From: Deltaproteobacteria bacterium | GTDB lineage: Bacteria > Myxococcota_A > Polyangia > JAAYKL01 | NCBI GenBank assembly: GCA_029565915.1 | Contig: JAKQNG010000296.1 | Span: forward strand, 38 to 64,037 | DNA length: 64,000 bases | Direction of reading: 5' to 3' | Shown here: piece by piece, positions 6,906 through 58,536 of the stretch | Layout of the letters: each line of letters starts with the position of its first letter | Position numbering within the stretch: the stretch's first letter is position 1 | Made by a program: the position numbers and the translations under genes | The notes under the pieces: generated by a model | Told to the model about the DNA's origin: nothing | Databases searched by the model: none | The model's input: only the letters and a program-made list of their open reading frames with translations

Positions 6906-8237
6906 TCAGGCGAGGCCCAGGTCCTTCATGCGGCGCCAGAGGGTGGTGCGGCTGATGCCCAGGATCCGGGCGGCGCGGGAGCGGTTCCACAATACCTTGT
7001 CGAGCACGGCCCGCAGCTGTCCGGCCTCCGTCGTTTCGTCCGGCGTTTCCGCTGAACGGATGGCCGACACGGGGCGACCGGCCGCGGACAGCACCTCCGG
7101 CGGCAGGCAGGTCGTGTCAAAGGTCGCGCCCCGGCACAGGACCGCCGCCCGCTCCAGGATATTGCGCAGCTCCCGCACGTTGCCCGGATAGTCGTAGTCG
7201 TACAGCAGGCGCATGGTGCGGGAAGCGAAGGCCGGAACCGGTCGGCCGATGCGTGCGCAGATCCGCTTCATCAGGTGTTCCACCAGCAGAGGGATGTCCT
7301 CCCGTCGCTCCCGCAGGGGCGGGATGTCCATCGTCACCACGCGGATGCGGTAGTAGAGGTCTTCCCGGAATTCACCGTCCTGCACCATCTTTTCGAGGTT
7401 CCGGTTGGTGGCGCACACCAGGCGCACATCCGCCACGTGGAGTCGCGAATCCCCGAGGGGCTGGTATTCCCCTTCTTCCAGCACCCGCAGCAGCTTCACC
7501 TGGAACGCGGGGGAGATGTCGCCGATTTCATCGAGGAAGAGGGTGCCCCGGTCCGCCTGGGCGAATCGCCCCACCCGGCTCGCCACCGCGCCGGTGAACG
7601 CGCCCTTCGCGTGGCCGAACAGCTCCGACTCCAGCAGCGTGTCCGGCAGGGCGCCGCAGTTCACCCGGATGAACGGGCCGCTCCTGCGCAAGGACAGGTT
7701 GTGGATGGCGCCGGCCACCAGCTCCTTGCCGGTTCCGCTGGGCCCGCGCACGAGCACCGGGGCGTCGGACTGGGCCACCTGGGGAATGGTGGCGAAGATC
7801 TCCTGCATGGCCCCGCTCGCGCCGACCATGTCCTCAAAAATGTGGCGGTTGGACAGCTCGCTGCGCAGCAGCTCCACGTCGCTCACATCCCGGAATATCT
7901 CCACGCCGCCCACCATGCGCCCCTCCTTGTCCCGCAGGATGGCCGTGGACACTTCGATGGGCACCGCGTCCATGTCCGCATTGAGCACATCCACCCGCAC
8001 GTCCCGCAGGGGAATGCCCGTTTCCAGGGTGTGGCGCAGGGCGCACCGGTTCTGGCAGATATCCGCCCGGAAGACCTCGTGGCACCGCCGTCCCAGAGCG
8101 TCCTGTACCGGAATGCCGGTAATCCGCGCCGCCGCCGCGTTGAACGAGGTGATGCGGAAGTGCTCGTCCACCGTGAACACCCCGTCGTTGATGCTGTCGA
8201 AAATCAGTGGAAAAAGCTGCGTCGTATTCTCACCCAT
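6906..8237 (-). CDS. PAS-domain sigma-54-dependent activator (bEBP, Fis HTH)
   Basis: N-terminal PAS, GPSGTGKE, GAFTGA, LFLDEIG, FREDLYYR, YPGNVREL, C-terminal HTH AARILGISRTTLWRR. Confidence 0.95.
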   Translation of the reverse strand: MGENTTQLFPLIFDSINDGVFTVDEHFRITSFNAAAARITGIPVQDALGRRCHEVFRADICQNRCALRHTLETGIPLRDVRVDVLNADMDAVPIEVSTAILRDKEGRMVGGVEIFRDVSDVELLRSELSNRHIFEDMVGASGAMQEIFATIPQVAQSDAPVLVRGPSGTGKELVAGAIHNLSLRRSGPFIRVNCGALPDTLLESELFGHAKGAFTGAVASRVGRFAQADRGTLFLDEIGDISPAFQVKLLRVLEEGEYQPLGDSRLHVADVRLVCATNRNLEKMVQDGEFREDLYYRIRVVTMDIPPLRERREDIPLLVEHLMKRICARIGRPVPAFASRTMRLLYDYDYPGNVRELRNILERAAVLCRGATFDTTCLPPEVLSAAGRPVSAIRSAETPDETTEAGQLRAVLDKVLWNRSRAARILGISRTTLWRRMKDLGLA

Positions 8238-8286: not shown

Positions 8287-8346
8287 TACTGTAACACAAT
8301 TTGAAACGGTTTGTTCCAATCGATTCTGCTGCATCTTCCTGCGTGC

Positions 8347-8362
8347 GGGCATGGTATTTGCT
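8347..8362 (+). promoter_or_regulatory. sigma-54 -24/-12 promoter
   Basis: GGGCATGGTATTTGCT = GG-N10-GC with TTGCT, upstream of the VKOR-DsbA gene. Confidence 0.65.
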
Positions 8363-8379
8363 TTTTCGAAAAGTCAGCC

Positions 8380-9573
8380 ATGAATGATATCCACATGAAT
8401 TCCATATCCGTCCCTGTGCCGCGCCGCCGGATCGCCATCATGATTCTGCTGTGCGTCGCGGGCCTTGTCGTGTCCGGCGAGCTGCTCCTTGTCCACTACC
8501 GCACCCACACGGATCCCGCATTCCATTCCCTGTGCGCGGTCAACGACGCGGTGAACTGCGAAACCGTCGCCCTGTCTCCCTGGTCCGTCGCCCTGGGCAT
8601 TCCCGTGTGCATCTGGGGCCTCATCGGATACAGCACGCTGCTGGCGCTGCTCCTGTGGAGCATCCGTCAGCCGGAGGAACGGTCGATGCCCGCCGCAACG
8701 CTGGCCGTTACACTGGCCTTTCTGGCCGTGTCCGCCGCCCTCGCGTGGATATCGTTCACCATCATCGATTCCCTGTGCCTGCTGTGCATGACCACCTACG
8801 CCGTCAACCTGGCCATGACCGGCATTTCCGTCTCCCGGGTGGCGCTCAGGGACGACGGACTGTGGACGCTGGTGCGGCGCGATCTGGGCGTTGTGCGCAG
8901 CGGGCCGCTGTTCTGGACGATCCTGGCGGTGACGGCCGTTGCCGCGCTGGTGACCGTGCGCGTGTCCCTGCCCACCTGGTGGGATTCATCCGGGGATCAG
9001 GCCACCGGGCAGGCGGACGCCGTGCGCGAAGGAGAAACCGCCCATTTCGTCGGCGCGGCGGATGCGCTGCTCACGATTGTCGAATACAGCGACTACCAGT
9101 GCCCGTTCTGCCGGATCGCCCACCGCCGGGTGCGCAGGCTGCTGGAGTCCCATGGGGATCGGGTGAAGCTGATCCACCGCCAGTTTCCCCTGGACGACGC
9201 CTGCAATCCTCTGGTGAAGCGGCGCTTCCATCCCTTTGCGTGCCATTTCGCCCTGGCCGCGGAGTGCGCCGGGGAACAGGGCCGCTTCTGGCAGATGAAC
9301 GACGCCCTGTTTGGTGCCCACGACACGCACAAATCCGAAGACATCGACGTCTTTGCCATGGCCGCGGACATCGGCGTGGACGTGGAACGGTTCCGCACCT
9401 GCATGCAGGATCCGGCCACCCGGGCCCGGTTGCGGGAAGATATCGACAAGGGCCTCGCCCTGGGCCTGACCGGAACGCCGACATTTGTGGTGGACGATAA
9501 ACCGCTGCGCAAAGCCCTGTCTGCGGAGCTCATCGAATCGCTGCTTTCTGAACGAAGCCGAAAAGCGCCCTGA
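8380..9573 (+). CDS. VKOR domain fused to DsbA-like thioredoxin domain
   Basis: VKOR loop C..NCETVALSPWS and CLLC; DsbA EYSDYQCPFC, FPLD, GTPTF; start 8380 or 8395. Confidence 0.9.
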   Translation: MNDIHMNSISVPVPRRRIAIMILLCVAGLVVSGELLLVHYRTHTDPAFHSLCAVNDAVNCETVALSPWSVALGIPVCIWGLIGYSTLLALLLWSIRQPEERSMPAATLAVTLAFLAVSAALAWISFTIIDSLCLLCMTTYAVNLAMTGISVSRVALRDDGLWTLVRRDLGVVRSGPLFWTILAVTAVAALVTVRVSLPTWWDSSGDQATGQADAVREGETAHFVGAADALLTIVEYSDYQCPFCRIAHRRVRRLLESHGDRVKLIHRQFPLDDACNPLVKRRFHPFACHFALAAECAGEQGRFWQMNDALFGAHDTHKSEDIDVFAMAADIGVDVERFRTCMQDPATRARLREDIDKGLALGLTGTPTFVVDDKPLRKALSAELIESLLSERSRKAP

Positions 9574-9599
9574 AAAGGACTGGCCAGCGGGATCAGTCG

Positions 9600-9938
9600 C
9601 TACTGATTTCTGAGTGCGTCGAGTTGCATTCTGAGCAGCGGGAGGCTCTCAACGACAATCTGCCAGATGATTTCTATATCGATACCGGAATAGTCATGGA
9701 CAATCCGATTGCGCATACCAGCCATCTGATGCCAGGGAAGAGATGCATGCCGGCTGATAAAATCCGATGGCATCTGACGGGCCGCCTCTCCGATAATTTC
9801 GATATTCCGGACCACCGCGTCGACGGTCCTGTCATCCGCCAGGAACTGCTCCCGGGTCATCCCCTCGCAGTAGCGACCAATCCGTTCCATCGCGATGTTC
9901 ATGTCGTCGATGAGAATATGCGGATCCCGCTCAGACAT
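9600..9938 (-). CDS. HepT-like HEPN ribonuclease toxin (DUF86)
   Basis: DAVVRNIEIIGEA, MRNRIVHDY (RX4HxY). Confidence 0.92.
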   Translation of the reverse strand: MSERDPHILIDDMNIAMERIGRYCEGMTREQFLADDRTVDAVVRNIEIIGEAARQMPSDFISRHASLPWHQMAGMRNRIVHDYSGIDIEIIWQIVVESLPLLRMQLDALRNQ

Positions 9939-10230
9939 CCTGCCGCTCCAGTTCAATCTGCCTGAGCAGACGGCCGCGAAGGGCCCGGGTTGAAACCAGA
10001 TCGACCGGATGTCCGAGCAAGGCCTCGAGTTCATCACCCAGTTCCACCATGCGAAGACCGATTTCGGGTTTCACATCAACGAGTATGTCAATGTCGCTGT
10101 GTTCCCCTGCCTCGCCGCGAACGACGGAACCGAACAGCCACATGGCGCGCAGCGGAAACTGTTTCTGCAGTCGCGGTTTTTCACTGCGGAGTACTCTCAG
10201 CACATCTTCTGTGTTCATGGAAACCGGCAT
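9931..10230 (-). CDS. minimal nucleotidyltransferase (MntA-like antitoxin)
   Basis: FGSVVRGEAGEHSDIDILV (GSX10DXD), VDLV; overlaps the HEPN gene. Confidence 0.92.
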   Translation of the reverse strand: MPVSMNTEDVLRVLRSEKPRLQKQFPLRAMWLFGSVVRGEAGEHSDIDILVDVKPEIGLRMVELGDELEALLGHPVDLVSTRALRGRLLRQIELERQDV

Positions 10231-10401
10231 GAAGCATGCATATCATTCCCGCCTCTGAAACTCAATGACCCGGTCCCGCGACGCCGACAGACCGGTCTGT
10301 TCCCGCCTGCCAGAAAACCTGAACCGCAGGGGTTCCTGTACGACACCCGGAGGCATCCACGATGATTCAGGTGTTGAAACCGATGTCGAACGGTCAGCGG
10401 G

Positions 10402-11694
10402 TCAGGCGTGGTCGAGTTCGGCGGTGGCCGCAATGGCGGCAATGGTGCCGTCCGCCACGGCGGTGGTGATCTGGCGGTACTTCTTGTGCACGATGTCGCC
10501 GGCGGCAAATACGTGGGGAATACCGGTGTGCATCGATTCGTCCACGACGAGATATCCCCATTCATCCGTGGTCAGTTCATCGCCGAACCGATCGAGGTTG
10601 GGCTTCATGCCCACAAAGACAAATACGCCATCGCAGGCAATGTCGTGCCGCTCCTGCGTCTTCAGGTTTTCCACGCGCACGGCGTTTACGGTTTCCGCGG
10701 ATGCGAGGAAGGCCCGGGGTTCGTGGGACCAGAGCACCTGTATGCCGGGATGGTCGAGGACCTTCTGCGCGGAGACGGCATTGGCCTGAAACCGGTCGAA
10801 CTGGTGGACCATGGTGATGCGCGTGGCGAACCGGGCGATGAACAGGGCTTCCTCCACGGCGGAGTTGCCGCCGCCGATGACCACCGCGTGCTTTCCTTCA
10901 AAATACTTGGCGTCGCAGGTGGCGCAGTACGACACGCCCTTTCCCCGGAACTCCCGCTCCCCCGGGATGTTGAGCAGCCGCGGGGAGGTGCCCGTGGCCA
11001 GGATGATTTTTTCTGCGAGGATGGTTTCAAGGCCGTCCACGACGATTTCCCGTCGGTGGAGGTCGACGCGGGTGACATCGACGGCGGAGCGGAACTGCGC
11101 GCCGGCGGCCTTTGCCTGTTCGGCCATGTAGTGGGCCAGCAGGTACCCCGGCTGGGGCGTCACGAACCCGGGGTAGTTGGACACCTGGTGGGTGATGCTG
11201 ACATTGCCGCCGGGCAGGGCGGTGTCGATGACCAGGGTATCGCGCTTCGCCTGGGCCGCATAGATCGCCGCGGCCAGCCCCGCCGGTCCACCGCCGATGA
11301 TGGCCACATCCACCCGGGTGTCCGTCGAAGGTGCAGCGGCAGCCAGCTCCGCCGCCCGCTGGTCGGGCAGCAGCGCGTGGAGGTTGCGGGTGAGGTCGGC
11401 CCGCCGGATGCCCCCCGTCAGCGTGTCACCGGTCCGTTCGCCGTTGCGGAAAAAAATAACGGTGGGTGAGCCGGTAATGCCAAGGGAAGTGGCCAGCTCC
11501 CGGTTTTCCTGCCGGAAAATTTTAATAAAGGTCACGTCGTTGCCGTAGATGCGGGCCAGGGATTCGTACTTGGCGGCCAGGGCTTCGCAGGGCGGGCATT
11601 CGGTGGAATAAAAATCCACCACAACGGGGCGCCCGGATTCCAGCACTTCCTTCTGCCAGTCGGCCTGACCGATGGTCAAAATGATATCTGACAT
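10402..11694 (-). CDS. thioredoxin - thioredoxin reductase fusion
   Basis: N-terminal Trx CPPC; TrxB motifs GGGPAG, GVSYCATCD, GGGNSA, FAAGD. Confidence 0.92.
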   Translation of the reverse strand: MSDIILTIGQADWQKEVLESGRPVVVDFYSTECPPCEALAAKYESLARIYGNDVTFIKIFRQENRELATSLGITGSPTVIFFRNGERTGDTLTGGIRRADLTRNLHALLPDQRAAELAAAAPSTDTRVDVAIIGGGPAGLAAAIYAAQAKRDTLVIDTALPGGNVSITHQVSNYPGFVTPQPGYLLAHYMAEQAKAAGAQFRSAVDVTRVDLHRREIVVDGLETILAEKIILATGTSPRLLNIPGEREFRGKGVSYCATCDAKYFEGKHAVVIGGGNSAVEEALFIARFATRITMVHQFDRFQANAVSAQKVLDHPGIQVLWSHEPRAFLASAETVNAVRVENLKTQERHDIACDGVFVFVGMKPNLDRFGDELTTDEWGYLVVDESMHTGIPHVFAAGDIVHKKYRQITTAVADGTIAAIAATAELDHA

Positions 11695-11697
11695 GGC

Positions 11698-13011
11698 TCA
11701 ATCCTCTTCCTTCTTGCCGCGCACGCGGCCGTCTTCTTCAAAGTAAACGGGAAACCCGGCTGCGGCGATGTCCGCCACGGGCCGGCAGTCCGGAGAATGC
11801 AGGTGGCCGTGGGTGTTTCTGGCCACCGCTCCGCAGCCGCCGCCGCAGACGAGCGCCGCGGCACAGCTGCGACAGGACTCGATGGCGAGGACGTCCCGGT
11901 CCTGCCAGAGGGCGATGGCCGCTTCGTCCCGCTGCACCACCGGGAAAAATGTGCCCAGCTCTTCGCCGGGCTTTCCCACCGTGGCTGTGCAGGAGAAGAT
12001 GCGGCCCAGGTGGTCGAAGGCCCATTCGGTTTTGCAGCCCGGGCAGCTGTCGAAGACGGGGTCCGGCAGCTCACCGGTCCGGGCCAGCGTGCGGACGAAA
12101 TGAAACGACGGCGCGTGGAACGCCATCACGTGGGGGTGCGCCGCGATGATGTCGGCCAACTCCCTGGCCAGCTCCAGCCTCGACAGGATGGCCGTTGCGC
12201 GGTGCTGGCAGGCGTGGAGCTCGTAGTTGCGCCCCAGCTGGGTTTTGAACAGGGGGTCCGCGGTCCATCCCCGGTCAATGGCGAACCGCGCCAGGTCGGG
12301 CAGGTTGTCGAGGTTGTCCCGGTCCACCACCATCCGCAGGTTGACGGGAATCCTTGCCGCGAGCAGCTGGTCCACGCCGCGGACGATCTTTTCAAAGGTG
12401 GGCCCGCCGTCCTTGCGCGGCCGCCGTCGGTTGTGGAGGTCCTCGGTGCCGTCCAGGGTAACCTGCACCTCCCGGATGAAACTGTCTTGCAGCACGTCCA
12501 GGTATTCTTCGACAAAGTAGCCGTTGGTCACCACCGCGGTGGTGGTGTGCCGGCGGGTCGCGCCCGCAAGGAAAAAGGTCACCGCATCCCTTGCGGATGC
12601 GCCGGGCAGCAGGGGCTCTCCGCCAAAAAGGGTGAAGTACCGGCGGCGTCCCGCAAAGGCGTGTTCCACGTAGTCGAACAGGGCGTCGATGACCGGCCGC
12701 TGATCACCACCGCCGCCCTGCAGGTAGTCCGCCTGGTAGCAGTAGTCGCAGTCGAAGTTGCACGCGTAGCCGGGCACGTAGAAGAGCTGCACCTCGTCGG
12801 TGTCGCGGGCATCAAGGAATTCGAGATATCGGCGGCGGAACTGGGCTTCCTCCTCCGGTCCGAAGGACGGGTCGTCGCTGGACGCGCGCCACGTTTCCAT
12901 CTCCGCGGCGCTGAGCAGGTGGGCGGTTCCCGTGAGGGCATTGGCAATCAGGCAGGACCCGTCGTTGCCCACGGGCGCCACCATGTCGTACTTCGACCGG
13001 CGCAGCGGCAT
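11698..13011 (-). CDS. radical SAM/SPASM peptide-maturase-like enzyme
   Basis: CNFDCDYC, FGGEPL, TNG, SPASM CPGC..FSC..CRSC..CGGGC..C; possible N-terminal RRE-like region. Confidence 0.92.
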   Translation of the reverse strand: MPLRRSKYDMVAPVGNDGSCLIANALTGTAHLLSAAEMETWRASSDDPSFGPEEEAQFRRRYLEFLDARDTDEVQLFYVPGYACNFDCDYCYQADYLQGGGGDQRPVIDALFDYVEHAFAGRRRYFTLFGGEPLLPGASARDAVTFFLAGATRRHTTTAVVTNGYFVEEYLDVLQDSFIREVQVTLDGTEDLHNRRRPRKDGGPTFEKIVRGVDQLLAARIPVNLRMVVDRDNLDNLPDLARFAIDRGWTADPLFKTQLGRNYELHACQHRATAILSRLELARELADIIAAHPHVMAFHAPSFHFVRTLARTGELPDPVFDSCPGCKTEWAFDHLGRIFSCTATVGKPGEELGTFFPVVQRDEAAIALWQDRDVLAIESCRSCAAALVCGGGCGAVARNTHGHLHSPDCRPVADIAAAGFPVYFEEDGRVRGKKEED

Positions 13012-13068
13012 TTCTGCATCCTTTCGCAAAAAAATCTCGGTGAAACCGGCGCGGGGCCTCCGGCGGCG

Positions 13069-13218
13069 TCAGTCGTGGCAGCCGGCGACGATTTTTGAAT
13101 TCTTGGCGCAGCACTGGGCGCGGGAACCGGCCTTGTCCGCTTTGCCCGACGGGGTCTTGTCGCGTTCGCGCTGGTTGCGGGCCGTTTTGTCGGTTGGTTC
13201 CTTCGTGAGTTTTTTCAT
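13069..13218 (-). CDS. 49-aa Cys-containing peptide, putative RiPP precursor
   Basis: Translated by hand: MKKLTKEPTDKTARNQRERDKTPSGKADKAGSRAQCCAKNSKIVAGCHD; AGGAG RBS; ATGA overlap with methyltransferase stop; lies directly before the rSAM gene. Confidence 0.85.
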   Translation of the reverse strand: MKKLTKEPTDKTARNQRERDKTPSGKADKAGSRAQCCAKNSKIVAGCHD

Positions 13219-13898
13219 CGGTTGTTCTCCTGTGGGTCAGAGGGTCGGCAGCCGCAGCCACAGCCGGGCCGCACGCCGCAGACGGTAAAACTGGACACTT
13301 CAATTTTTCCCTTCGGGTAGGGGTCGCTTTCTTCGAGGATGCGGATGTCGGCAAACCCGGCGAGTTCCAGGGTGGCGAGGTATTCGTTGCGGGTCACTGC
13401 CCCGGCCCAGCATTCGGCCACGGCCGCCGGGTCGTTGCGGTACTCCTGCGGCACGGGCGCGGACGAATAAATGTCGCTCACCGCAAATCGGCCACCGGGT
13501 TTCAGGATGCGTCGGATTTCGCGCCACACGGCGGGTTTGTCCGTGGCGTGGTTGATGGTGCAGTTGGAAATCACGAGATCGGCCACACCGTCGGGGAGGG
13601 GCAGTTTTTCGATGGAGGAAGCGATGAACTCCACGTTGGATGCGCCCGTTTTCTGTGCGGTGCGGCGGGCGACCGCGAGCATGCCGTCCGCCGTGTCGAT
13701 GCCGAAGACCTTTCCGGTGGGGCCCACGGCTTGCGCCATGCGCAGCACGTCGGTGCCCCGGCCGCTGCCGATGTCCACGCAGGTTTCGCCCTCCTGCGCC
13801 TTTGCGAAATTCAGCGCACCGCCGCAGGAGAGGCAGCAGGATGACGCGGCCAGGCCGCTGTAGCGCTCGTCAATTTTCTGTCGGATGGATTCGTTCAT
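13215..13898 (-). CDS. arsenite methyltransferase (ArsM/AS3MT)-like SAM-dependent methyltransferase
   Basis: CCLSCGG, DIGSGRGTD, ISNCTINH, LKPGGRFAVSDI, ECWAGA; CGCGC tail. Confidence 0.85.
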   Translation of the reverse strand: MNESIRQKIDERYSGLAASSCCLSCGGALNFAKAQEGETCVDIGSGRGTDVLRMAQAVGPTGKVFGIDTADGMLAVARRTAQKTGASNVEFIASSIEKLPLPDGVADLVISNCTINHATDKPAVWREIRRILKPGGRFAVSDIYSSAPVPQEYRNDPAAVAECWAGAVTRNEYLATLELAGFADIRILEESDPYPKGKIEVSSFTVCGVRPGCGCGCRPSDPQENNR

Positions 13899-13973
13899 GG
13901 GACCTTCCTTCGCCCGGCTGCCGGACGAGTGTACCACAGGGAGCCGCCGGCCCAATCACCGGTGTCAAAAAAG

Positions 13974-14921
13974 TTATTCGATAATGATGGATTCGAAACA
14001 GGCGATGTTGGTTTCGATGCGGAAATTGGACTGGCTGGTATGGCGCTCCGCGTGGAACACGTCCATGGGGTAGGAATTGCCCGGTTCGATGCCCAGCTCG
14101 CCGGCCTTGGCGTCGAAGTCGATGGTTCCCTCGTAGGGCCAGTGGAGACCGCCCAGATCGAGGGCGATGCGGTTGTTGACGAAAATCCACAGGTCGTCGT
14201 CGCCCCGGAAGGTGAACACCTGGCCTTCTTCGTACTGGAACTCCAGATGGATTTCGGTGGTGAACAGGAAGTTGCGCAGCTCGCCGTCGTCGTCCACCTG
14301 GCCGGACTCGGCGCCGAACCCTTCGCTGTTGCCGATGGGGAAGAAGGTGCTGTCGTCATAGACAAAGGAACCGCTGCCGCTGTCTTCGAGGGTGAGCGTA
14401 TCCTCGATGCGGACGTTCACGCCGTCCACGTCCGTGTACCACTGGGCAAAGCTGGAAGCGCTGTCCCACATGGGGATACTGCCCCAGGCAGGGCCCGTGG
14501 GGGTGCTGGTGGCGTTTTCGAGAAAACCGCCGTTGGGACAGGTTTCGCCGCAGGCGGGGTCCGTGGTCTGGTACTCTCCCTGCAACTGGTTGAATTCGGG
14601 CTTGCGGCTCGCGCCGAGGACCGGTCGCACCATGCCCTGGCATGGGCCCCAGCCGAGGTCCGCCCGCTCGAAGTCCACGTGGTCCGAGGTGAAGTCCCGG
14701 TAGACCACCTGCAGGGTGCTCTCGCAGTCGCCGTCCGAATCGCTGTCCGAGTCCGAATCGCTGTCCGAGTCGGAGTCGGAATCCGAATCGGAGTCGCTGT
14801 CCGCATCCCCGGGGCCGTCGTCGCCCGGCCGCTCGGTGCCGCCGGTTTCGCAGGACGTGCCGGCCAGGCAGAGGAGTGCGCACGCAAGCGCGATCAGATG
14901 AAATGAGTGGTTGGTTGTCAT
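13974..14921 (-). CDS. fibro-slime domain lipoprotein
   Basis: Signal ending AGTSC, DS linker, [45 protein letters not shown]. Confidence 0.9.
   Translation of the reverse strand: MTTNHSFHLIALACALLCLAGTSCETGGTERPGDDGPGDADSDSDSDSDSDSDSDSDSDSDSDGDCESTLQVVYRDFTSDHVDFERADLGWGPCQGMVRPVLGASRKPEFNQLQGEYQTTDPACGETCPNGGFLENATSTPTGPAWGSIPMWDSASSFAQWYTDVDGVNVRIEDTLTLEDSGSGSFVYDDSTFFPIGNSEGFGAESGQVDDDGELRNFLFTTEIHLEFQYEEGQVFTFRGDDDLWIFVNNRIALDLGGLHWPYEGTIDFDAKAGELGIEPGNSYPMDVFHAERHTSQSNFRIETNIACFESIIIE
14727..14807 (-). repeat. Asp-Ser dipeptide coding repeat
   Basis: 6-bp period encoding DA(DS)nDGD with synonymous codon variation. Confidence 0.9.
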
Positions 14922-14940
14922 GAGAACTCCTGATGGCCGG

Positions 14941-15828
14941 TTATTCCACCGGCGGGACAAAGCATTCGATGGTGGTCTCGATGCGGAAGTTGGATTCGAG
15001 GGTGTGGCGCTCCGCGTGGAACACGTCAAAATCGTAGGTGTTGCCGGGCGTGATGCCCAGGGTGTTGGCCATGTCGTCAAAGTCGATGATGCCTTCCTTC
15101 GGTTCGTGGGTGCCGCCGAGGTCGAGGGCCAGCACGCCGTTCACGAAGATCCACAGGTCGTCGTCGCCTCTGAAGGTGAAGGTTTCGCCACCCACATATT
15201 CGAAGGCGGAGTGGATTTCGGTGGTGAACAGGAAATTGCGCTGTTCGTCATCATTGTCGAGCTGGCCGTCCTCTGCGCCGAAGCCTTCGTCGAGACCCAG
15301 CGGAAAGAAGCTGCTGTCGGAAAAGACATACAGGCCGTTGTCCTGTTCTTCGAGGATGATGCCCTTTTCGATGGCGATGTTGGTGCCGTCCACATCCCGG
15401 TACCAGTCGTTGAAATTGTCCGGTGTGGGGTCGCCCAAGTCAGCGGGCCAGTCGTTAATGTCGTAGCAGGTGTCGTTGGGGTGGACCCAGCAGGCGTCGT
15501 CATCGTCGTAGACCGGATTCTTGTCGCTGTCGAGCTGGGGTCCGAGCAGTCCGCGGATGACCGCGTTTCCGGGGTTCTCGATTTCGAAGTCGCTGTGACT
15601 CGCCTTGAAATCCCGGAAGGTGACGGGGAGGATGCCGCAGTCTGAGTTGATCAGTTCCGGATCGTCCACGATGCCGTTGCCGTCCGGGTCAATGTCGCCG
15701 TCGCTGTCAGAATCGCTGTCCGCATCGCTGTCGCCGTCGCCGCCGGGGGGTGGATTGGCATTGTCCGTATTTGAACAGGCCATCAGCAGGGCGCAGATGA
15801 AAAACGCGAAGAATGGTTTTTGTGTCAT
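14941..15828 (-). CDS. fibro-slime domain lipoprotein, paralog
   Basis: LLMAC lipobox, DS linker, [28 protein letters not shown]. Confidence 0.9.
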
Positions 15829-15999
15829 GGCATGTCTCCTTGGGGTAATCAATCGGTACAAAGTTAATCCATTTTTATTATATCTGCATTGAATTCCAGC
15901 CGGGGATTCTGTTCGAAAAGATGCGCGAAATGAGCAGAAATGGCAACCGGGGACGGGTTTCGTTCGAGTTTCACAATGACCGCATCCGGGCGGACTGGG

Positions 16000-17452: not shown

Positions 17453-18442
17453 TCAGTTGGCAGCGCAGTCGGTGACGCAGGCCGCTTCGTCGGCGCTGCA
17501 GGCCTGCCGGCAGGAAATATAGCCGGCCATGTCGCCGGGCCAGGTGTCTTCGCATTCCCATTCGCAGGTTGCGCGCGCGGCCGAACAGCTGCTGCTGCAG
17601 AGGTAGATGGAATCGTAGCCGGCGCAGCCGTAGTAGCTGTCGCTGCAGTCCGTGGTGCAGGCGGCGTCGGTGCCGTCGCAGCCCTGCTGACAGGTGGTCA
17701 CACCGGTCAGGCACGGGCAGGCGCTCATGCACAGGCTGAAATCGCTCTGACACGAATACCCGGCCGTTTCGCAGTCCCACACGCAGGACGAATCGTCCGG
17801 GCCCGTGCAACCGGCAAGGCAGGTGGCGATCTGCTCTTCACAACCGGGCAGGGACGCGGCGAATCCGGCGGCGCAGGTGCGTTCGCAGTCTTCGTTGGCC
17901 GGATCTTCCACGTGCTCCGCGGCGGTGTCCCAGGTGCCCGTGCATTCGTCGAGGCAGGGCACCTCGTCGGCGCTGCAGGCCGTCCGGCAGTTGGTGTACT
18001 GCGTCATGTCCGCAGCGGTTTCGCAGTCGTAGAAACACATGCTTTTTACGCTCTGGCAACCGAGGGCGCAGTTGTAAGGGGAGAGATTTTCCGTGCAGGA
18101 CAGATAGCCGTTATTGCAGTCCATGAGACAGGCAGTGTCACTCTGCGGACAGTTCCGCGCGCAGGATACCACCCGGTCCGCGCAGGGACAGTCGGCGATG
18201 CACCGCGTGAAGTCCATCTGACAGTTTCCGGCCAGATCCTCGCAGTCCCACACGCAATCGTAATCGTCGAAGGAGGTACAGGAAGACAGGCACTCGTTCA
18301 TCCGATCGTCGCAGTCGGCCACCCGCGACGCATAGTGTTCCACGCAGCTCTCTTCGCAGGTGAGATTGTCGGTGCCGTCGCCGCGACATCCGGTCAGCAG
18401 GACGACAATCGCGCAACTGATGAGTGGATGACGGTTGCTCAT
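17453..18442 (-). CDS. Cys-rich lipoprotein with two internal ~140-aa repeats
   Basis: LLTGC lipobox; two aligned repeats of 24 Cys each, mostly CX3C. Confidence 0.85.
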   Translation of the reverse strand: MSNRHPLISCAIVVLLTGCRGDGTDNLTCEESCVEHYASRVADCDDRMNECLSSCTSFDDYDCVWDCEDLAGNCQMDFTRCIADCPCADRVVSCARNCPQSDTACLMDCNNGYLSCTENLSPYNCALGCQSVKSMCFYDCETAADMTQYTNCRTACSADEVPCLDECTGTWDTAAEHVEDPANEDCERTCAAGFAASLPGCEEQIATCLAGCTGPDDSSCVWDCETAGYSCQSDFSLCMSACPCLTGVTTCQQGCDGTDAACTTDCSDSYYGCAGYDSIYLCSSSCSAARATCEWECEDTWPGDMAGYISCRQACSADEAACVTDCAAN

Positions 18443-45909: not shown

Positions 45910-47577
45910 CTACGGCTGCGAGGGAATGGAAACCGGCAGCAGATTCAGATGCAGTTCGTTATTCTGGTTCTGAGACGGCGTGCAACCGTGTTTGTGAAAA
46001 ATGGTCTTATGCTCTTCGTCATATTCGAAGGGGTGGCGGGTGTAGGGATTGCGAAGGTTCCCGGGAGATTTCGAAAGGAAGCTTTCAATATCTGCCGGAG
46101 GGACTGTTTCAGTAATGTATCTGATTTTCAAGATGACAAGCCGACGTACAATCTCTGCAGTGACCACCCTGTGGTAGTACTTCTGCAATGCTGGAAGAGA
46201 CACTTTCAGCGAAATCACGCCAATGAAATTCTGCGCCGTATCCATAACCCCGAAGTCCAGTTCGGACATTACGCAATTGCCGTTGTCGTCAAACTCGGCC
46301 AGTGGCATCTGGCTGACACTTCCCAATTTTTTGAAGAAGGGGAAACTGAGTTCCGTTGCATGATTCGGCTTGAAAAGAATCTGCCTGGCAGGCAACACCG
46401 GGTTTTTCAATGCTTTCATTTCTTCAATCACACCGACATGCATGGCGTGGTACAGGGCAGCGAATTCCTGCCTGAACGATTTTTTCATCGACAATTCATC
46501 AGGCGAAAATGGGCGAAGCAGGTAGTGGAATCCGGAAATATGGGAATGGAACTCCGGGTTATCCAGAAAGCGGGATAACTGGTAAACGCTCGCTGCCCAG
46601 GTGGCTACTGCGATCATTTTCAGCATGAGGGTGTCTGCCATTGACAGCAGACGGCGACTGAATCCCAGTTGTCGTTTCAATAGAGCAACTGCCTCTTCGA
46701 CCTTTCCATCATGCAACAGCGTTTCAGCGTAGAACAACAGAAGTTTGTTGCCGGATATCAGTGGCGACAGCCGCAGGTCTTCCATTTCAGGAAGCAGCGG
46801 AAACGGCGTATGCCAGCGCGAAAACCTCTGGAGAGATAGATACCGTTCGATTGCGTCCTGATTCTGCTGGAAGAGACTGCGTATTTTTTCCTGTTCTTTC
46901 GGGCACAGAAAAGAGGCGCGATTTGTATCGAGGCGATTCAGAAAATCCTGATCTCGTTTTTTGAAATTCCCGAAAACCGGAAAGTCAGAATCGAAAATCT
47001 CAGTCTGGTATGCCTCCAGACCACTCCAATCTCCACGCCGGATGAAATCTCTGGATATTTGGGACACTTGAACTCCATATTCCGCATCTCCTGTCGTCGA
47101 ATCTGTCTGTCCGAATCCCATCACCGCATACAGCATATTGCTCGCGGGTTCCTTATCCTCCGCTATCTGCATGAAGGATTCAGCATCCCGGGAAAGCGCG
47201 CGGTCCGGGAATATCCAGTTCCACCAGGTGGCACAGAAGAATCCAACCATCACCGAGTTCGCAAGAACACGCAGATATGGCGCTTTCATCCTCTTGCGGA
47301 TTGCAGCATAGCCGACACCAGCTGCCGCAACAGCGGCAACGGCTGCAATGTAGTTGAGATAAGGCTGTTGTTCCGCTGTCCTGTTGAGAATGAACAGCGC
47401 AAGATAGCCGGTGCCGGACAGAGAAAAGACCGTTACAATTGCACTCTTCATCGAAACGGCATCCCGGGGCGGCACGAGCCTGGATATGAGTACAACCAAC
47501 GAAGGACCAACGATGAAGAGCCACGTGACAATCAGTCCGCCGTGCAGTCCCACCGCCATCTCGAAGGTTTCTGTCAT
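45910..47577 (-). CDS. hypothetical membrane protein, lower GC
   Basis: Long ORF, ~4 N-terminal TM, C-terminal NPYT.PFEY motif; AT-richer codons. Confidence 0.75.
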   Translation of the reverse strand: MTETFEMAVGLHGGLIVTWLFIVGPSLVVLISRLVPPRDAVSMKSAIVTVFSLSGTGYLALFILNRTAEQQPYLNYIAAVAAVAAAGVGYAAIRKRMKAPYLRVLANSVMVGFFCATWWNWIFPDRALSRDAESFMQIAEDKEPASNMLYAVMGFGQTDSTTGDAEYGVQVSQISRDFIRRGDWSGLEAYQTEIFDSDFPVFGNFKKRDQDFLNRLDTNRASFLCPKEQEKIRSLFQQNQDAIERYLSLQRFSRWHTPFPLLPEMEDLRLSPLISGNKLLLFYAETLLHDGKVEEAVALLKRQLGFSRRLLSMADTLMLKMIAVATWAASVYQLSRFLDNPEFHSHISGFHYLLRPFSPDELSMKKSFRQEFAALYHAMHVGVIEEMKALKNPVLPARQILFKPNHATELSFPFFKKLGSVSQMPLAEFDDNGNCVMSELDFGVMDTAQNFIGVISLKVSLPALQKYYHRVVTAEIVRRLVILKIRYITETVPPADIESFLSKSPGNLRNPYTRHPFEYDEEHKTIFHKHGCTPSQNQNNELHLNLLPVSIPSQP

Positions 47578-47579
47578 TT

Positions 47580-48704
47580 TCACGCCATGGGTAGACCGGC
47601 GAGCCAGGATGCCGCGCGGCGCACTTCGACGCCCTTGTTCGTGGTTTCCGTGCGCAGGTGCTGCACGAGCTGGGTGGCGGGAAATCCGTACCTGGCAGCG
47701 AACGAGATCAGGTTTCGATCCGGTGTCGACTCCGAGGTCTTGCATTCGATGATCCGTTCAATGGATTTTTTTTTCACGAGCGCGAAGTCCACCTCCGCAC
47801 CGTCTTTCGTGCGCAGATAGTGAAGCTGGCGGGATTCGCCCCGCTGGTCCTCCTGGTACCAGGTGTACTTGAGCAGCGACAGGGCCGTGAGGTTTTCAAA
47901 CCGCGCCCCGCCCGGTGCGTTCACGAGACCGGTGTCGAAGAAATAGATTTTCGGCTCCTTGAGCAGGGAGCGGGCGATGTTGCGCGACCACGGTGTGATG
48001 CGGAAGACGAGGAACAGCGCTTCGAGGATCTGGACGTACTTCGTTACCGTGGTGGGCGAAACGCCGATATCCCGCGCCATGGACGCAAAGGAGCAGGGCG
48101 AGCCGACCCGCTCGCGCAGGAGTTCGAAGGTGAGCTGGAGCGCCTTGAAATCGATCATCCGTTGAAAATCGAGAACGTCATAGCGGATCATCGCGTCCGC
48201 GTACTGGTTGCGCCATCGTTCCGCATCTGTCGCCGTATCGCCGAGCAGCGGCTCGGGAAAGCCACCGCGGCTCATCAATCGCTCCAGATCGCCGTCCAGC
48301 GGCGTTTTCGCGATTTCCGCCGGGCAGAAGGGCAGCAACCGGTGCCGGAAATACCGTCCGGCCAGCGACTCCCCACCGCGGGAGAGGACGTCCATCCGTG
48401 CGCTGCCGGTGACGAGAATGCGAAGACCCGGCGGGCGCGTGTCGAAGATCCCCTTCAGGTACCGCTGCCAGTCCTTCATCTTGTGGATTTCGTCGAGAAT
48501 GAGCAGCCCGGTACCGGGCAGCCAGGCTTCTTTTGCAATGACGTCGCGATCCGCGCGGTTGTCGTAGTTGAGATAGACAGTGCGCTCGTACCGGGTGCCG
48601 ATCTCCCTGGCGAGCCAGGTTTTTCCCACCTGCCGCGGACCCACGAGAAAAACCATTTTCTTTTCGAGATCGCGAAGGAGCGATGCCGTCTGAAGTCGAT
48701 CCAT
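47580..48704 (-). CDS. AAA_14/DUF4143 family ATPase
   Basis: GPRQVGKT, LDEIH, VTGS, SLAGR, GGFPE, KIYFFDTG, EVDF..IECK. Confidence 0.92.
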   Translation of the reverse strand: MDRLQTASLLRDLEKKMVFLVGPRQVGKTWLAREIGTRYERTVYLNYDNRADRDVIAKEAWLPGTGLLILDEIHKMKDWQRYLKGIFDTRPPGLRILVTGSARMDVLSRGGESLAGRYFRHRLLPFCPAEIAKTPLDGDLERLMSRGGFPEPLLGDTATDAERWRNQYADAMIRYDVLDFQRMIDFKALQLTFELLRERVGSPCSFASMARDIGVSPTTVTKYVQILEALFLVFRITPWSRNIARSLLKEPKIYFFDTGLVNAPGGARFENLTALSLLKYTWYQEDQRGESRQLHYLRTKDGAEVDFALVKKKSIERIIECKTSESTPDRNLISFAARYGFPATQLVQHLRTETTNKGVEVRRAASWLAGLPMA

Positions 48705-58524: not shown

Positions 58525-58536
58525 GAAAACACCTCG

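Follow-up and report, generated by a model that had tools for sequence, protein, structure and literature searches.

Results

Gene organization of the locus

Four tightly spaced minus-strand genes occupy positions 10402-13898 of the 64-kb stretch of DNA analysed here (the window), as proposed in a first-pass annotation with which both the list of open reading frames and the junction letters agree (Table 1). Checked letter by letter, the junctions include an ATGA overlap of the methyltransferase stop with the peptide start and a 3-nt gap between the stop of the radical SAM (rSAM) gene and the ATG of the thioredoxin-thioredoxin reductase (Trx-TrxR) fusion, both claimed by that annotation. The peptide stop lies 57 nt from the rSAM ATG at 13011, 8 nt upstream of which is AAAGGA. 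Alternative TTG starts at 13955 (ORF 13215-13955) and 13029 (ORF 11698-13029) would give a methyltransferase of 246 aa and an rSAM enzyme of 443 aa. RNA-library contigs match all four genes at identities of at least 99%, and one of them spans 13023-13272 and covers the peptide gene, with DNA carry-over a possible source in each case.

Table 1. Features of the four-gene locus, in window positions.
Feature	Position	Strand	Description
Methyltransferase gene	13215..13898	-	Compact ArsM-type SAM methyltransferase, 227 aa from ATG at 13898
Precursor peptide gene	13069..13218	-	49 aa here; 31-32 aa in most relatives
Peptide N-terminal leader motif	13195..13218	-	Residues 1-8, MKKLTKEP here; consensus elsewhere MKSLIKKK
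Peptide C-terminal core	13072..13119	-	Residues 34-49, AQCCAK.S....GCHD; stop codon directly after
rSAM gene	11698..13011	-	Radical SAM/SPASM peptide maturase, 437 aa from ATG at 13011
RRE-like N-terminal domain, rSAM enzyme	12877..13011	-	Residues ~1-45: three beta strands, then helix
Trx-TrxR gene	10402..11694	-	Thioredoxin-thioredoxin reductase fusion, 430 aa
Terminator-like hairpin	10335-10321	-	~70 nt past the Trx-TrxR stop

Conservation of the gene cassette

Synteny was analysed in 80 loci with rSAM homologs, taken from 502 related stretches and carrying at least six phylum labels. Among loci with the flank available, the methyltransferase was present in 73/74, the peptide in 78/79, and the Trx-TrxR fusion in 77/78. 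The order methyltransferase, peptide, rSAM, Trx-TrxR is kept in 69 of the 80 loci, which bears out the conserved synteny that the first-pass annotation had put forward as a check; TrxR comes first in two. Absence of the peptide beside rSAM homologs had been named as evidence against the proposal, and in 78 of the 80 loci a short peptide-type ORF directly precedes the rSAM gene. Because the four genes occur together in nearly all of these 80 loci, which come from other organisms, and the peptide core is under purifying selection (see below), the arrangement goes far beyond what chance would give. The data support a conserved, widespread unit common to many anaerobic bacteria.

The precursor peptide

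Eleven residues (A34, Q35, C36, C37, A38, K39, S41, G46, C47, H48, and D49) are invariant in 43 aligned peptides. At the DNA level the 80 cores fall into 77 different sequences, every invariant residue being encoded by 2-6 synonymous codons, and the core is under purifying selection. In a profile search with the peptide, 1291 of 1572 candidate proteins matched at E≤0.01, every named one a 'hypothetical protein', and the exact core stands at the C-terminus in 122/122 database peptides among the matches listed. Leader conservation was measured position by position in 110 peptides of 31-33 aa. The peptide matches no Pfam or NCBIfam family. These observations support the small ORF as a real, selected peptide gene beside rSAM homologs.

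The radical SAM enzyme and leader binding

In Pfam, the rSAM enzyme matches Radical_SAM (73.4 bits) and Fer4_12 (34.7 bits). Comparison with named rSAM/RiPP families, another proposed check, gave none that reached its cutoff: the best NCBIfam match was TIGR04463 (103.3 bits, cutoff 525), and scores were also low against the PapB model (88.7, cutoff 340), the SCIFF maturase model (66.6, cutoff 425), and the mycofactocin maturase (MftC) model TIGR03962 (54.5, cutoff 265). A CX3CX2C motif at C84/C88/C91 and nine further cysteines are invariant in 71 sequences. The invariant positions include the motifs C326-X9-G336-X4-C341 and C380-X2-C383-X5-C389-X3-C393, and C409, a set that we take to be the SPASM pattern.

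The AlphaFold2 model of the enzyme (pLDDT 90.0, pTM 0.89) places secondary structure in the RRE-like domain at E9-13, E20-24, E29-33, and H35-43; Pfam does not recognise this domain as PqqD/RRE. The best Foldseek matches to the model were CteB structures 5why/5wgg (E 2.5e-16, TM 0.65-0.69, full-length alignment), followed by anSME, SuiB, SkfB, and ChlB, and CteB 5wgg was also the best solved sequence match (E 8.5e-11). Sequence and fold thus support a CteB-like peptide maturase.

Models of the rSAM-peptide complex scored 0.70 (median of three runs) against 0.00 for the best control, passing a mark reached by 58/80 solved complexes and 2/110 mismatched pairs; contact agreement between the runs was at least 29% and partner pLDDT at least 36. 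Peptide residues 1-6 and 8 make the confident contacts, with enzyme residues 21, 28-34, and 37 and further ones at 309, 312-315, 424, and 427-428. Only the leader is placed by the model; where the core lies is uncertain. The prediction supports binding of the peptide N-terminus to the RRE-like domain, although the pass may stem from likeness to solved maturase-leader complexes.

The methyltransferase

The best family of the methyltransferase is the NCBIfam arsenite methyltransferase NF008823, at 204.5 bits (below the cutoff of 263); the match covers profile positions 60-232 of 272, and the first ~60 are missing. Its best relatives in the structural database are the solved ArsM 4kw7/4fr0 (phmmer, ungapped, E 3.6e-27), and it is 43% identical to the canonical ArsM of its own genome over 171 ungapped residues. 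The ArsM cysteine motifs reported in the first-pass annotation are present in the translation as SSCCLSCGG, ISNCT, and AECWAGA. C25, C113, and C163 align with residues 72, 174, and 224 of the solved ArsM chain, and together with C21, C22, and C40 they are conserved in 66-68 of 73 homologs; the enzyme also has a variable Cys-rich tail. In place of the missing N-terminal positions, a CC pair sits three residues before the Cys72 equivalent. ArsMs are described as having four conserved cysteines in common (PMC6138428), and the CC pair as counterpart of ArsM Cys44 is unsupported by any alignment. The sequence comparisons support an ArsM-derived enzyme with ArsM cysteines kept.

The Trx-TrxR fusion

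The fusion protein matches Pfam Thioredoxin over residues 7-105 (70.3 bits) and TIGR01292 over residues 129-425 (313.7 bits, below the cutoff of 343.45). It carries CPPC in the N-terminal Trx domain and CATC and GGGNSAVEEA in the TrxR part, with HQFD in the stretch after the latter. These motifs are conserved at 90% or more in 71 homologs. E. coli and NADPH-dependent TrxR have HRRD where the fusion has HQFD.

Genomic neighbourhood and the arsenic link

The ars proteins of the window's own genome were used as tblastn probes (E 1e-3). No homolog of its ArsR, ArsC-containing ORF, ArsP-like permease, ArsF, or ArsG was found in the window, in keeping with an earlier statement that no arsR, acr3, or arsC is nearby, and none was found in the 80 cassette loci. 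The 25 Pfam families seen most often in the 150 nearest ORFs include no ars family, and by the same count the cassette has no accompanying transporter, exporter, or protease. The regulators that recur beside it are MarR, a Zn-ribbon protein, and sigma-54 two-component pairs; an ArsR-type regulator is absent among the recurrent neighbours. The first-pass annotation had argued from the missing ars genes against plain detoxification. That argument holds, but the same absence weakens the arsenic link equally.

A canonical ars locus lies elsewhere in the genome, and its ArsM exceeds the NCBIfam cutoff; an ArsM above cutoff was found in 0/5 cassette-bearing relatives. No glutamate-cysteine ligase of either Pfam type is present in the genome (90% complete), which fits a host needing another thiol donor. 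Several neighbours suggest a tie to sulfur or redox stress in place of arsenic, namely an SQR-like flavoprotein (8 of 80 loci), DUF302 (19), DUF6132 (12), and OsmC (3 of the 150 nearest ORFs); a BLH/DUF442-like protein occurs in 5 of 80 loci. For the SQR-like protein the best NCBIfam match is type III sulfide:quinone reductase (102 bits, cutoff 525).

The cassette had been proposed to make a methylarsenic-modified or thioether-crosslinked peptide. A peptide-maturation unit is supported, whereas arsenic enters only through the ancestry of the methyltransferase. On this sequence evidence an arsenic link is plausible, and a methylarsenic-modified peptide is one among several products that would fit.

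Comparison with known systems

Among the systems closest to the cassette are those of CteB/SCIFF and PapB-type ranthipeptide maturation, in which radical SAM/SPASM enzymes form thioethers on Cys-rich peptides. With these it shares the N-terminal RRE-like domain, CX3CX2C, the full SPASM-type cysteine set, and a small Cys-containing precursor encoded immediately upstream. It differs in that its rSAM enzyme scores far under every named maturase family cutoff and its peptide has three cysteines, belongs to no precursor family, and is nearly invariant across phyla. We know of no such system with an ArsM-type methyltransferase and a Trx-TrxR fusion; the cassette has both. The mycofactocin (MftA/MftC) and PQQ (PqqA/PqqE) systems are similar in pairing a tiny precursor of conserved C-terminal end with an adjacent SPASM maturase and in lacking an exporter, a sign of an intracellular product. 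The cassette, however, has no recurrent excising peptidase, separate RRE protein, or cofactor-dependent dehydrogenase, and its peptide conserves cysteines, in contrast to Gly-Val-Tyr or Glu/Tyr in the precursors of those pathways.

With ArsM/AS3MT the cassette methyltransferase shares the aligned and conserved equivalents of Cys72, Cys174, and Cys224, and the thioredoxin system beside it matches the reductant proposed for the ArsM disulfide cascade (PMC6138428). It differs in its sub-cutoff score, in the CC pair that replaces ~60 N-terminal profile positions, and in its location, never in an ars operon in 80 loci and adjoining a peptide and a peptide maturase. An ArsM-type methyltransferase is likewise encoded beside a radical SAM enzyme in the ArsL (arsinothricin, arsQML) and ArsS (arsenosugar) pathways, and ArsL is established to form C-As bonds through radical SAM chemistry (PMC8552651; 10.1101/2024.02.01.577332). 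These pathways act on SAM-derived small molecules, however, with no ribosomal peptide, and the arsinothricin genes lie in an ars operon according to PMC8552651, unlike the cassette in 80 loci. A dedicated thioredoxin system beside an arsenic-type enzyme is also seen with ArsX (thioredoxin) and ArsT (thioredoxin reductase), reported as auxiliary genes of some actinobacterial ars clusters (PMC6514093). Set against these and other Trx-TrxR fusions, the cassette protein is a fusion with Trx N-terminal, has CPPC and a conserved HQFD, and accompanies a peptide maturase, not an arsenate reductase.

Pfam and NCBIfam hold no model for the peptide or its rSAM subfamily, and no description of the cassette or its product was found in the literature searched. 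The first-pass annotation had counted an already characterised family of this layout as evidence against its reading; none was found in these sources. By the family libraries and literature searched, the cassette is of a kind not yet named, and the product of a widespread unit of peptide, maturase, ArsM-type enzyme, and reductase is undescribed there.

Discussion

A RiPP-like reading of the cassette is well supported. The explanation that we prefer, a self-contained conserved four-gene peptide-maturation cassette with the steps below, is as a whole the best available, although its probability falls somewhat short of an even chance. In the first step, which is very probable, a small ribosomal peptide with an MKSLIKKK-type leader and an invariant 16-residue C-terminal core, bringing three cysteines, a histidine, and a terminal aspartate, would dock through its leader, which would add a strand to the RRE-like domain at the N-terminus of the CteB-like enzyme. 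The rSAM enzyme would then act on the Cys-rich core by radical chemistry, most likely forming at least one cysteine-derived thioether cross-link; by analogy with the nearest relatives, we give this step an even chance.

The third step is tentative and draws on the ArsM mechanism. The methyltransferase may still perform ArsM-type oxidative methylation of a thiol-held soft atom, since it keeps the three metalloid-site cysteines and has an N-terminal CC pair as putative counterpart of the fourth of ArsM. As(III) or Sb(III) would be the most likely substrate. The three peptide thiols would deliver it in a manner resembling the supply of canonical ArsM by As(GS)3, its preferred substrate (PMC6138428). 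Leftover disulfides in enzyme, peptide, or both would then be re-reduced by Trx-TrxR; Trx is reported to reduce the disulfide cascade of ArsM (PMC6138428). This metalloid step is weakened by the absence of ars genes in 80 loci and by the sub-cutoff score and short N-terminus of the methyltransferase. Finally, no exporter, leader protease, or immunity gene is present, and different phyla share an invariant core. An intracellular role is therefore most likely, with the product a thiol peptide that serves as a carrier or resembles a cofactor rather than an antibiotic for secretion. Why a simple carrier of thiols should require a radical SAM enzyme, or an invariant His-Asp end, is not obvious, and both points count against the preferred explanation.

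Ordinary RiPP tailoring with no metalloid is the strongest competitor, though on balance unlikely. The rSAM enzyme would cross-link the core, the methyltransferase, of ArsM descent, would have been recruited to methylate the peptide itself (at cysteine sulfur, histidine, lysine, or C-terminal carboxylates), and Trx-TrxR would do no more than keep the three cysteines in reduced form until they are modified. RiPP tailoring commonly involves methyltransferases, and here the gene overlaps that of the peptide and encodes a protein with a shortened N-terminus that falls below the ArsM cutoff; the lack of ars genes in the 80 loci and the window also agrees. A three-cysteine metalloid site and a reductant are, however, both dispensable for methylating thiol, nitrogen, or oxygen. 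Even so, 66-68/73 homologs retain C25, C113, C163, and the CC pair, 77/78 loci retain Trx-TrxR, and the identity to a genuine ArsM is 43% over 171 ungapped residues.

It is improbable that the product is a covalent organoarsenical peptide, the bold version of the first-pass proposal, in which an rSAM-made carbon radical on the peptide would attack thiol-held As(III) or methylarsenite to form a C-As bond while the methyltransferase puts methyl groups on arsenic. The arsinothricin pathway pairs ArsM with a C-As-forming radical SAM enzyme (PMC8552651; 10.1101/2024.02.01.577332). NCBIfam keeps a separate arsenosugar ArsM model (NF038099), the CC...C triad of the peptide offers the usual ligand number for As(III), and the methyltransferase keeps ArsM cysteines. 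Against this, the rSAM enzyme belongs with the SPASM peptide maturases of CteB type, whereas ArsL and ArsS are of other rSAM lineages and are not known to be SPASM peptide maturases. The 80 loci have no arsenic-responsive regulator or efflux gene, and a product that stays the same across six phylum labels and has no exporter does not resemble a specialised organoarsenical.

Still less probable is a cycle of reactive sulfur or selenium, in which the peptide cysteines would carry a persulfide or selenide, the methyltransferase would methylate the outer S/Se, and Trx-TrxR would free methanethiol or methylselenol and reset the thiols. Such a cycle requires a reductant, and the optional neighbours of sulfur type (SQR-like, DUF302, DUF6132, and BLH/DUF442-like) agree with it; DUF302 genes are reported in sox clusters of sulfur oxidisers (PMC5037610). 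Each of these neighbours, however, is confined to between 5 and 19 of the 80 loci, the window has none of them, and the cycle has no use for a three-cysteine ArsM site. We know of no enzyme of this kind.

A metal-binding peptide (Zn, Fe, Ni, or Cu ligated by C36, C37, C47, and H48), or a core that becomes a redox cofactor like mycofactocin or PQQ, with an unrelated or accessory role for the methyltransferase, is very improbable. An invariant C-terminal core with a variable linker does resemble peptide-derived cofactor precursors, and the weak TIGR03962 match and the lack of exporter and protease point the same way, but no recurrent cofactor-using enzyme or excising peptidase lies beside the cassette, and the peptide is no more tightly linked to the rSAM enzyme than to the methyltransferase and Trx-TrxR. 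That the four genes are adjacent by chance or shared regulation only, with a non-functional small ORF, is barely credible: all that favours it is the general point that neighbouring genes need not share a function, and it is contradicted by the codon variation and purifying selection in the core, by a gene order conserved in 69/80 loci across several phylum labels, and by the predicted leader binding with its clean controls.

Organization and transcription of the cassette

The first-pass annotation had described four packed minus-strand genes, encoding a methyltransferase, a short peptide, a radical SAM (rSAM) enzyme and a fusion of thioredoxin with thioredoxin reductase (Trx-TrxR). All of its details that were checked proved correct, including the ATGA overlap, whose letters are shared by the methyltransferase stop and the peptide start, and the 3-nt gap that parts rSAM from Trx-TrxR. 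Between the end of the peptide gene and the rSAM ATG lie 57 nt. A scan for sigma-70 and terminator consensus sequences returned nothing 5' of the methyltransferase gene.

Features of the window and of related genomes, with positions in nucleotides
Feature	Position	Strand	Remarks
PAS-domain sigma-54 activator	6906-8237	minus	
VKOR membrane domain fused to DsbA/thioredoxin-like domain	8311-9573	plus	Pfam VKOR 84.8 bits, Thioredoxin_4 78.3 bits
HepT-like RNase toxin gene	9600-10037	minus	Pfam HepT-like 104.7 bits
MntA-like nucleotidyltransferase antitoxin gene	9931-10230	minus	52.7 bits, cutoff 60
Terminator-like hairpin	10335-10321		3' of Trx-TrxR, the last cassette gene
Thioredoxin + thioredoxin reductase fusion	10402-11694	minus	430 aa
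Radical SAM enzyme	11698-13011	minus	From ATG; TTG at 13029 likewise open
Peptide gene	13069-13218	minus	49 aa
Methyltransferase	13215-13898	minus	227 aa
Upstream paralog, first	13974-15080	minus	
Upstream paralog, second	14941-15861	minus	
Protein of 471 aa	16000-17415	minus	No Pfam match
Cysteine-rich protein	17453-18442	minus	329 aa, seemingly duplicated internally; no Pfam match
GC drop	46001-48000		0.527; window otherwise 0.58-0.68
AT skew	58001-60000		-0.32 (strong)
Conventional ars locus (L085) of the window's own genome (G000)	contig C34, 33000-47000		ArsR, ORF with thioredoxin-type ArsC domain, ArsM (352 bits), ArsP/SaoE-like permease, ArsF-family protein, ArsG
ArsM-like domain, relative's genome G006	G006:C151:15817-16524		~186 bits, profile positions 4-240
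ArsM-like domain, relative's genome G016	G016:C56:1144-1851		~186 bits, profile positions 4-240
Joined rSAM and Trx-TrxR frames, locus L012	6004-8613	plus	869-aa ORF without a stop

This stretch is found in metagenomes from activated sludge and also in three metatranscriptome runs. RNA-library contigs of at least 99% identity lay on the methyltransferase gene (13301-13914), across the entire peptide gene with both junctions (13023-13272), on the 5' end of the rSAM gene (12770-13027) and on two parts of the Trx-TrxR gene (10560-10797 and 11135-11365); positions 9500-10500, 11500-12670 and 14009-14500 had no RNA contig, which is uninformative because contigs drop thin coverage. The RNA contigs fit a single transcription unit, with DNA carry-over as another possible source.

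Conservation and distribution

One genome per species was scanned (185,579 species), and of the 502 stretches with rSAM relatives the best 80, at 45-57% identity, were kept. By the depositors' labels, these best 80 of 502 belong to Bacteroidota (54), Spirochaetota (8), Myxococcota or ‘delta/proteobacterium’ (7), Ignavibacteriota (6), Bacillota (2), Chloroflexota (1) and Hyphomicrobiales (1), and one is unlabelled. MAGs labelled Paludibacter, Melioribacter or Draconibacterium are among the carriers. Protein collections contained 3,591 rSAM homologs.

Searches of the 80 loci by tblastn with the window's proteins detected Trx-TrxR at 77, the methyltransferase at 73 and the peptide at 68, and a pattern search raised the peptide ORF to 78. 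With contig ends allowed for, the methyltransferase was present at 73 of 74 loci, the peptide at 78 of 79 and Trx-TrxR at 77 of 78. Two loci are genuine exceptions: L066 has neither methyltransferase nor peptide, and L016 has no Trx-TrxR. The methyltransferase and the reductase are linked to the peptide as tightly as the maturase is. Synteny, which the first-pass annotation had named as a check, is well kept: the order methyltransferase-peptide-rSAM-TrxR was found at 69/80 loci (TrxR-methyltransferase-peptide-rSAM at 2/80), and the peptide is indeed conserved beside rSAM homologs, lying upstream of them at 78 of 79.

Within the window's class the rSAM gene was found in 7 of 41 genomes, namely the window's own, 6/20 from the same family and 0/20 from other families. 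In a quick tree the window's rSAM enzyme and three Myxococcota sequences formed one group (support 99), and phylum labels were largely clustered across it, with 11 changes against 19.6 when shuffled; the few cross-phylum placements may be transfers or binning errors. At one of the 80 loci (L012) the rSAM and Trx-TrxR frames are run together, which may be a natural fusion or a long-contig assembly error.

A precursor peptide with an invariant core

The peptide ORF is a genuine gene. When 43 peptides were aligned, residues A34, Q35, C36, C37, A38, K39, S41, G46, C47, H48 and D49 proved invariant, with the stop codon directly after, and these make up the C-terminal 16-residue core AQCCAK.S....GCHD (residues 34-49). 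The cores of 80 peptides were encoded by 77 distinct DNA sequences, with two to six synonymous codons at every invariant residue and all three stop codons in use. Because synonymous codons vary at invariant residues, selection acts on the amino acids and not on the DNA itself or on an RNA structure. Across the loci, identity was ∼50% for the rSAM enzyme and ∼60% for the methyltransferase, and the peptide core was better conserved than both, which points to a housekeeping-like product (a cofactor, for example) and not to a variable antibiotic.

No matching family for the peptide exists in Pfam or NCBIfam, and the ESM Atlas gave no usable match. A single-sequence query with the 49-aa peptide returned only 2 proteins; when a profile was built from the alignment and run against 5.8 billion proteins, 1,291 homologs were recovered at E≤0.01, among 1,572 candidates; those with names were all called ‘hypothetical protein’. 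Among the matches listed, the exact core stood at the C-terminus in 122/122 peptides, and 109/122 had 31 or 32 residues; their first eight residues approximate MKSLIKKK. At 49 aa the window's peptide is unusually long, and it begins MKKLTKEP. In some N-terminal leaders there are additional cysteines in pairs or triplets (e.g. CC, CGC, CCC) a short way before the core (loci L010, L012, L023, L036, L045, L047, L054, L057, L060, L069, L071, L074 and L077), echoing the variable cysteine-rich tail of the methyltransferase.

The radical SAM enzyme as a predicted leader-binding maturase

The rSAM enzyme scored 73.4 bits against Pfam Radical_SAM (cutoff 29.5). Its cluster motif CX3CX2C (C84/C88/C91) was invariant in 71 rSAM sequences, as were C268, C323, C326, G336, C341, C380, C383, C389, C393 and C409. 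The spacing C-X9-G-X4-C ... C-X2-C-X5-C-X3-C ... C is one expected of a SPASM domain, in which seven or eight cysteines serve two auxiliary clusters; the Pfam SPASM model itself gave no match at E≤0.01, and the C-terminal half could be aligned with CteB and anSME. No named maturase family in NCBIfam had its cutoff reached, the scores (bits/cutoff) being 103/525 for TIGR04463, 101/600 for CefB, 92/450 for DynA, 89/340 for PapB and 66.6/425 for the SCIFF maturase (TIGR03974).

An AlphaFold2 model built from the 71-sequence alignment (pLDDT 90.0, pTM 0.89) has an N-terminal domain of three strands followed by a helix (beta-beta-beta-helix). When this model was compared with the PDB by Foldseek, CteB came first (E 2.5e-16, TM 0.65-0.69, full-length alignment), followed by anSME, BlsE (7vob, blasticidin S biosynthesis, rank 7), SuiB, SkfB and ChlB; all top structures listed except BlsE are SPASM or twitch enzymes with peptide substrates.

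Modelled together, the rSAM enzyme and the peptide gave a median complex score of 0.70 over three runs (0.68-0.71), and the highest-scoring of the three controls gave 0.00; a mark of 0.70 was attained by 58/80 solved complexes and by 2/110 mismatched pairs. The runs shared at least 29% of contacts, and the peptide's own fold is uncertain, since its pLDDT was at least 36. Confident contacts joined peptide residues 1-6 and 8 to rSAM residues 21, 28-34 and 37, in the third strand and helix of the N-terminal domain, and also to rSAM residues 309, 312-315, 424 and 427-428. The leader segment in contact coincides exactly with the part of the peptide that is conserved apart from the core. RiPP recognition elements (RREs) bind leaders in this strand/helix manner. 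Solved maturase-leader complexes exist, and the score could partly reflect likeness to them. The model supports binding of the leader by an RRE-like domain of the rSAM enzyme and leaves the core unplaced. Taken with the fold comparison, it predicts a CteB-like peptide maturase that binds its leader.

In its working the cassette would resemble ranthipeptide or sactipeptide-type maturation by CteB or PapB, but it falls below the cutoffs of those families. In ranthipeptides, thioethers tie cysteine sulfur to a beta or gamma carbon. The SCIFF precursor has six cysteines, whereas the cassette peptide has three conserved cysteines and no family match. The MftC model of the mycofactocin system, TIGR03962, gave the rSAM enzyme 54.5 bits against a cutoff of 265, and none of that system's partners (a separate RRE protein, a peptidase and dependent dehydrogenases) is among the cassette's recurrent neighbours.

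An ArsM-like methyltransferase and its putative reductant

The methyltransferase (METHYLTRANSFERASE) retains cysteines of ArsM, three of them by alignment. Its best match was NCBIfam NF008823 (arsenite methyltransferase), at 204.5 bits and E 2.2e-60 over profile positions 60-232 of 272, under the curated cutoff of 263 bits; the cassette copies of five relatives scored 185.9-197.4 bits. The nearest solved structures are those of ArsM (4kw7 and 4fr0, E 3.6e-27), and an ungapped alignment places C25, C113 and C163 at ArsM residues 72, 174 and 224. Among 73 methyltransferase homologs, C21 and C22 were each kept in 66, and C25, C40, C113 and C163 in 68; the CGCGC tail at the C-terminus varies. According to one review, every arsenic methyltransferase shares four cysteines, Cys44, Cys72, Cys174 and Cys224 (CmArsM numbering), As(GS)3 is the preferred ArsM substrate and the disulfide cascade is reduced by thioredoxin (PMC6138428). 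No residue is aligned with Cys44, and the C21/C22 pair could fill its role. By inference the cassette enzyme works like ArsM, but it lies below the family cutoff, is without the N-terminal segment and, at the 80 loci, was never found in an ars operon with ArsR and an efflux gene, the usual setting of ArsM.

The window's own genome also encodes a canonical ArsM, which at 352 bits exceeds the cutoff of 263 and shares 43% identity with the cassette enzyme across 171 ungapped residues. Its gene lies on a different contig, within a conventional ars locus. None of the five cassette-bearing relatives has an ArsM over the cutoff, and so the argument that the cassette enzyme is an extra paralog holds for the window's genome only; in 5/5 relatives the best ArsM-like protein is the cassette enzyme, at about 186-197 bits. 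Two relatives, G006 and G016, have an ArsM-like domain within much longer open frames of 625-671 aa, which suggests a fusion protein of a different kind.

In the Trx-TrxR fusion, residues 7-105 form a thioredoxin domain and residues 129-425 the reductase body, which scored 313.7 bits against TIGR01292 (thioredoxin-disulfide reductase, cutoff 343.45). In 71 homologs the CPPC of thioredoxin was conserved, as were CATC and GGGNSAVEEA of the reductase. Past GGGNSAVEEA the sequence reads HQFD throughout these homologs, where E. coli TrxR has HRRD, an NADPH-binding motif, a difference that bears on the electron donor. Some ars clusters also include thioredoxin-system genes, named ArsX and ArsT (PMC6514093), but these are not known as a fusion or next to a maturase.

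Neighbourhood and regulation

Clustering of all flanking ORFs of the 80 loci revealed no fifth universal gene. The recurrent neighbours were a small Zn-ribbon protein encoded upstream on the other strand (22/80 loci), DUF302 (19/80), a sigma-54 response regulator (17/80; 13 by tblastn), a histidine kinase (17/80), DUF1847 (13/80), DUF6132 (12/80), YceI (12/80), MarR (8/80) and an SQR-like flavoprotein (8/80). DUF1847, which has a cysteine-rich N-terminus and is not mentioned in the papers found by our literature search, appears as an optional fifth cassette gene, either between rSAM and TrxR (L022, L038, L043, L062, L065 and L072) or after TrxR (L004, L011, L037, L059, L064 and L069).

No ars family, transporter or peptidase was among the 25 most frequent of the 87 Pfam families matched by the 150 ORFs nearest the cassette, a ranking in which families of one or two members may not appear. 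The first-pass annotation had noted that ars genes are missing nearby, and this stands: the six ars proteins of the own genome were found at 0/80 loci by tblastn, and they matched nothing else in the 64-kb window.

Upstream of the cassette, sigma-54 response regulators and histidine kinases occur in a Bacteroidales subgroup (13 loci by tblastn), and the window has a sigma-54 activator of its own. Sigma-54 control was considered and dropped, as a strict -24/-12 pattern within 260 nt upstream of the methyltransferase was found at 0/71 loci.

Proposed mechanism and the arsenic question

The first-pass annotation had read the four genes as an arsenic-linked RiPP system; the conserved RiPP-like cassette is supported, but the arsenic chemistry is unproven. 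The safest part of the account, and one that we hold to be very probable, is a RiPP-like maturation system, in which the leader would dock on the RRE-like domain and the SPASM enzyme would act on the invariant core. The absence of any exporter, protease or immunity gene, together with the invariant core, points to an intracellular role. By analogy with the nearest rSAM relatives, one or more thioether links from cysteine may be formed on the core, a step for which the chances appear about even.

The three thiols of the peptide would then offer the ArsM-type enzyme a trivalent metalloid, in place of As(GS)3, and Trx-TrxR would reset the disulfides after oxidative methylation. That a metalloid is the methyltransferase substrate is a tentative proposal, somewhat short of an even chance. 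Hosts may make no glutathione, since no Glu-Cys ligase was found in the window's 90%-complete genome; GSH-S_ATP gave two borderline matches there (24.8 and 23.3 bits), and this model also matches control genomes presumed to lack glutathione. The main argument against arsenic is that no ars regulator or pump occurs at the 80 loci. A sulfur or selenium variant is kept alive by occasional sulfur-type neighbours. The enzyme set could alternatively reflect an ArsM fold turned to peptide tailoring with its arsenic-site cysteines kept. Simple methyl transfer needs no reductant, while ArsM-type oxidative methylation needs both the arsenic-site cysteines and a reductant. All of these cysteines are kept and a dedicated reductant is present, which would be pointless for mere peptide methylation, and the metalloid model is therefore favoured.

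Under the boldest form of the metalloid model, which we consider improbable, the product would be a ribosomal peptide that bears arsenic or another metalloid, the first of its kind; anaerobes from several phyla would share it as a conserved organometalloid peptide inside the cell. As(III) would be held by the three thiols of the core, and a SPASM-made carbon radical on the peptide would capture it as a C-As bond, or the arsenic might instead be locked within a thioether-braced cage; the ArsM-type enzyme would methylate it and the private Trx-TrxR would reset the disulfides.

Novelty and implications

The first-pass annotation had left novelty to a literature check, and no named family or paper with the four-gene layout came to light in NCBIfam, Pfam and the main texts of open papers. 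Neither NCBIfam release 20 nor Pfam models the peptide or this subfamily of rSAM enzymes, and the names given in source annotations go no further than ‘radical SAM protein’, ‘uncharacterized protein’ or ‘hypothetical protein’. The full-text search found the layout undescribed, the supplementary cluster tables of RiPP/rSAM mining papers (e.g. PMC10352776) being outside its scope. A paper on RiPP mining in Bacteroidales has no mention of thioredoxin or arsenic, and the locus in a preprint on organometallic selenoprotein systems differs from the cassette. The arsinothricin and arsenosugar pathways also place ArsM beside radical SAM enzymes, but no ribosomal peptide is used there. Within the limits of this search, we regard the cassette as a RiPP-like family that is new and whose set of enzymes is without precedent.

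The cassette is a large cross-phylum gene unit without a name or a described product, widespread, unusually constrained and directly testable. It would join RiPP radical SAM chemistry to ArsM-type metalloid methylation with a dedicated reductant, two fields that had not been joined before, and it presents either ArsM chemistry with a peptide partner or an arsenic-methyltransferase fold put to new use. Similarity-based environmental arsM surveys may miscount cassette genes as arsenic methylases in Bacteroidota, Ignavibacteriota, Spirochaetota and Myxococcota, because the methyltransferase matches the ArsM model at E 2e-60 and is the best ArsM-like protein in 5/5 relatives examined; arsM counts in anaerobes are probably inflated.

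Other features of the window

Directly upstream of the cassette lie two tandem paralogs with signal-like N-termini, Asp-Ser or Asp-rich linkers and weak PA14 matches (28.1 and 19.4 bits), PA14 being the sole family matched. Directly downstream, overlapping MntA-like and HepT-like genes look like a type VII toxin-antitoxin pair, judged by family matches; no such pair stands beside the cassette at the 80 other loci. The VKOR-DsbA fusion is another thiol-redox protein near the cassette, with homologs by only 2/80 loci.
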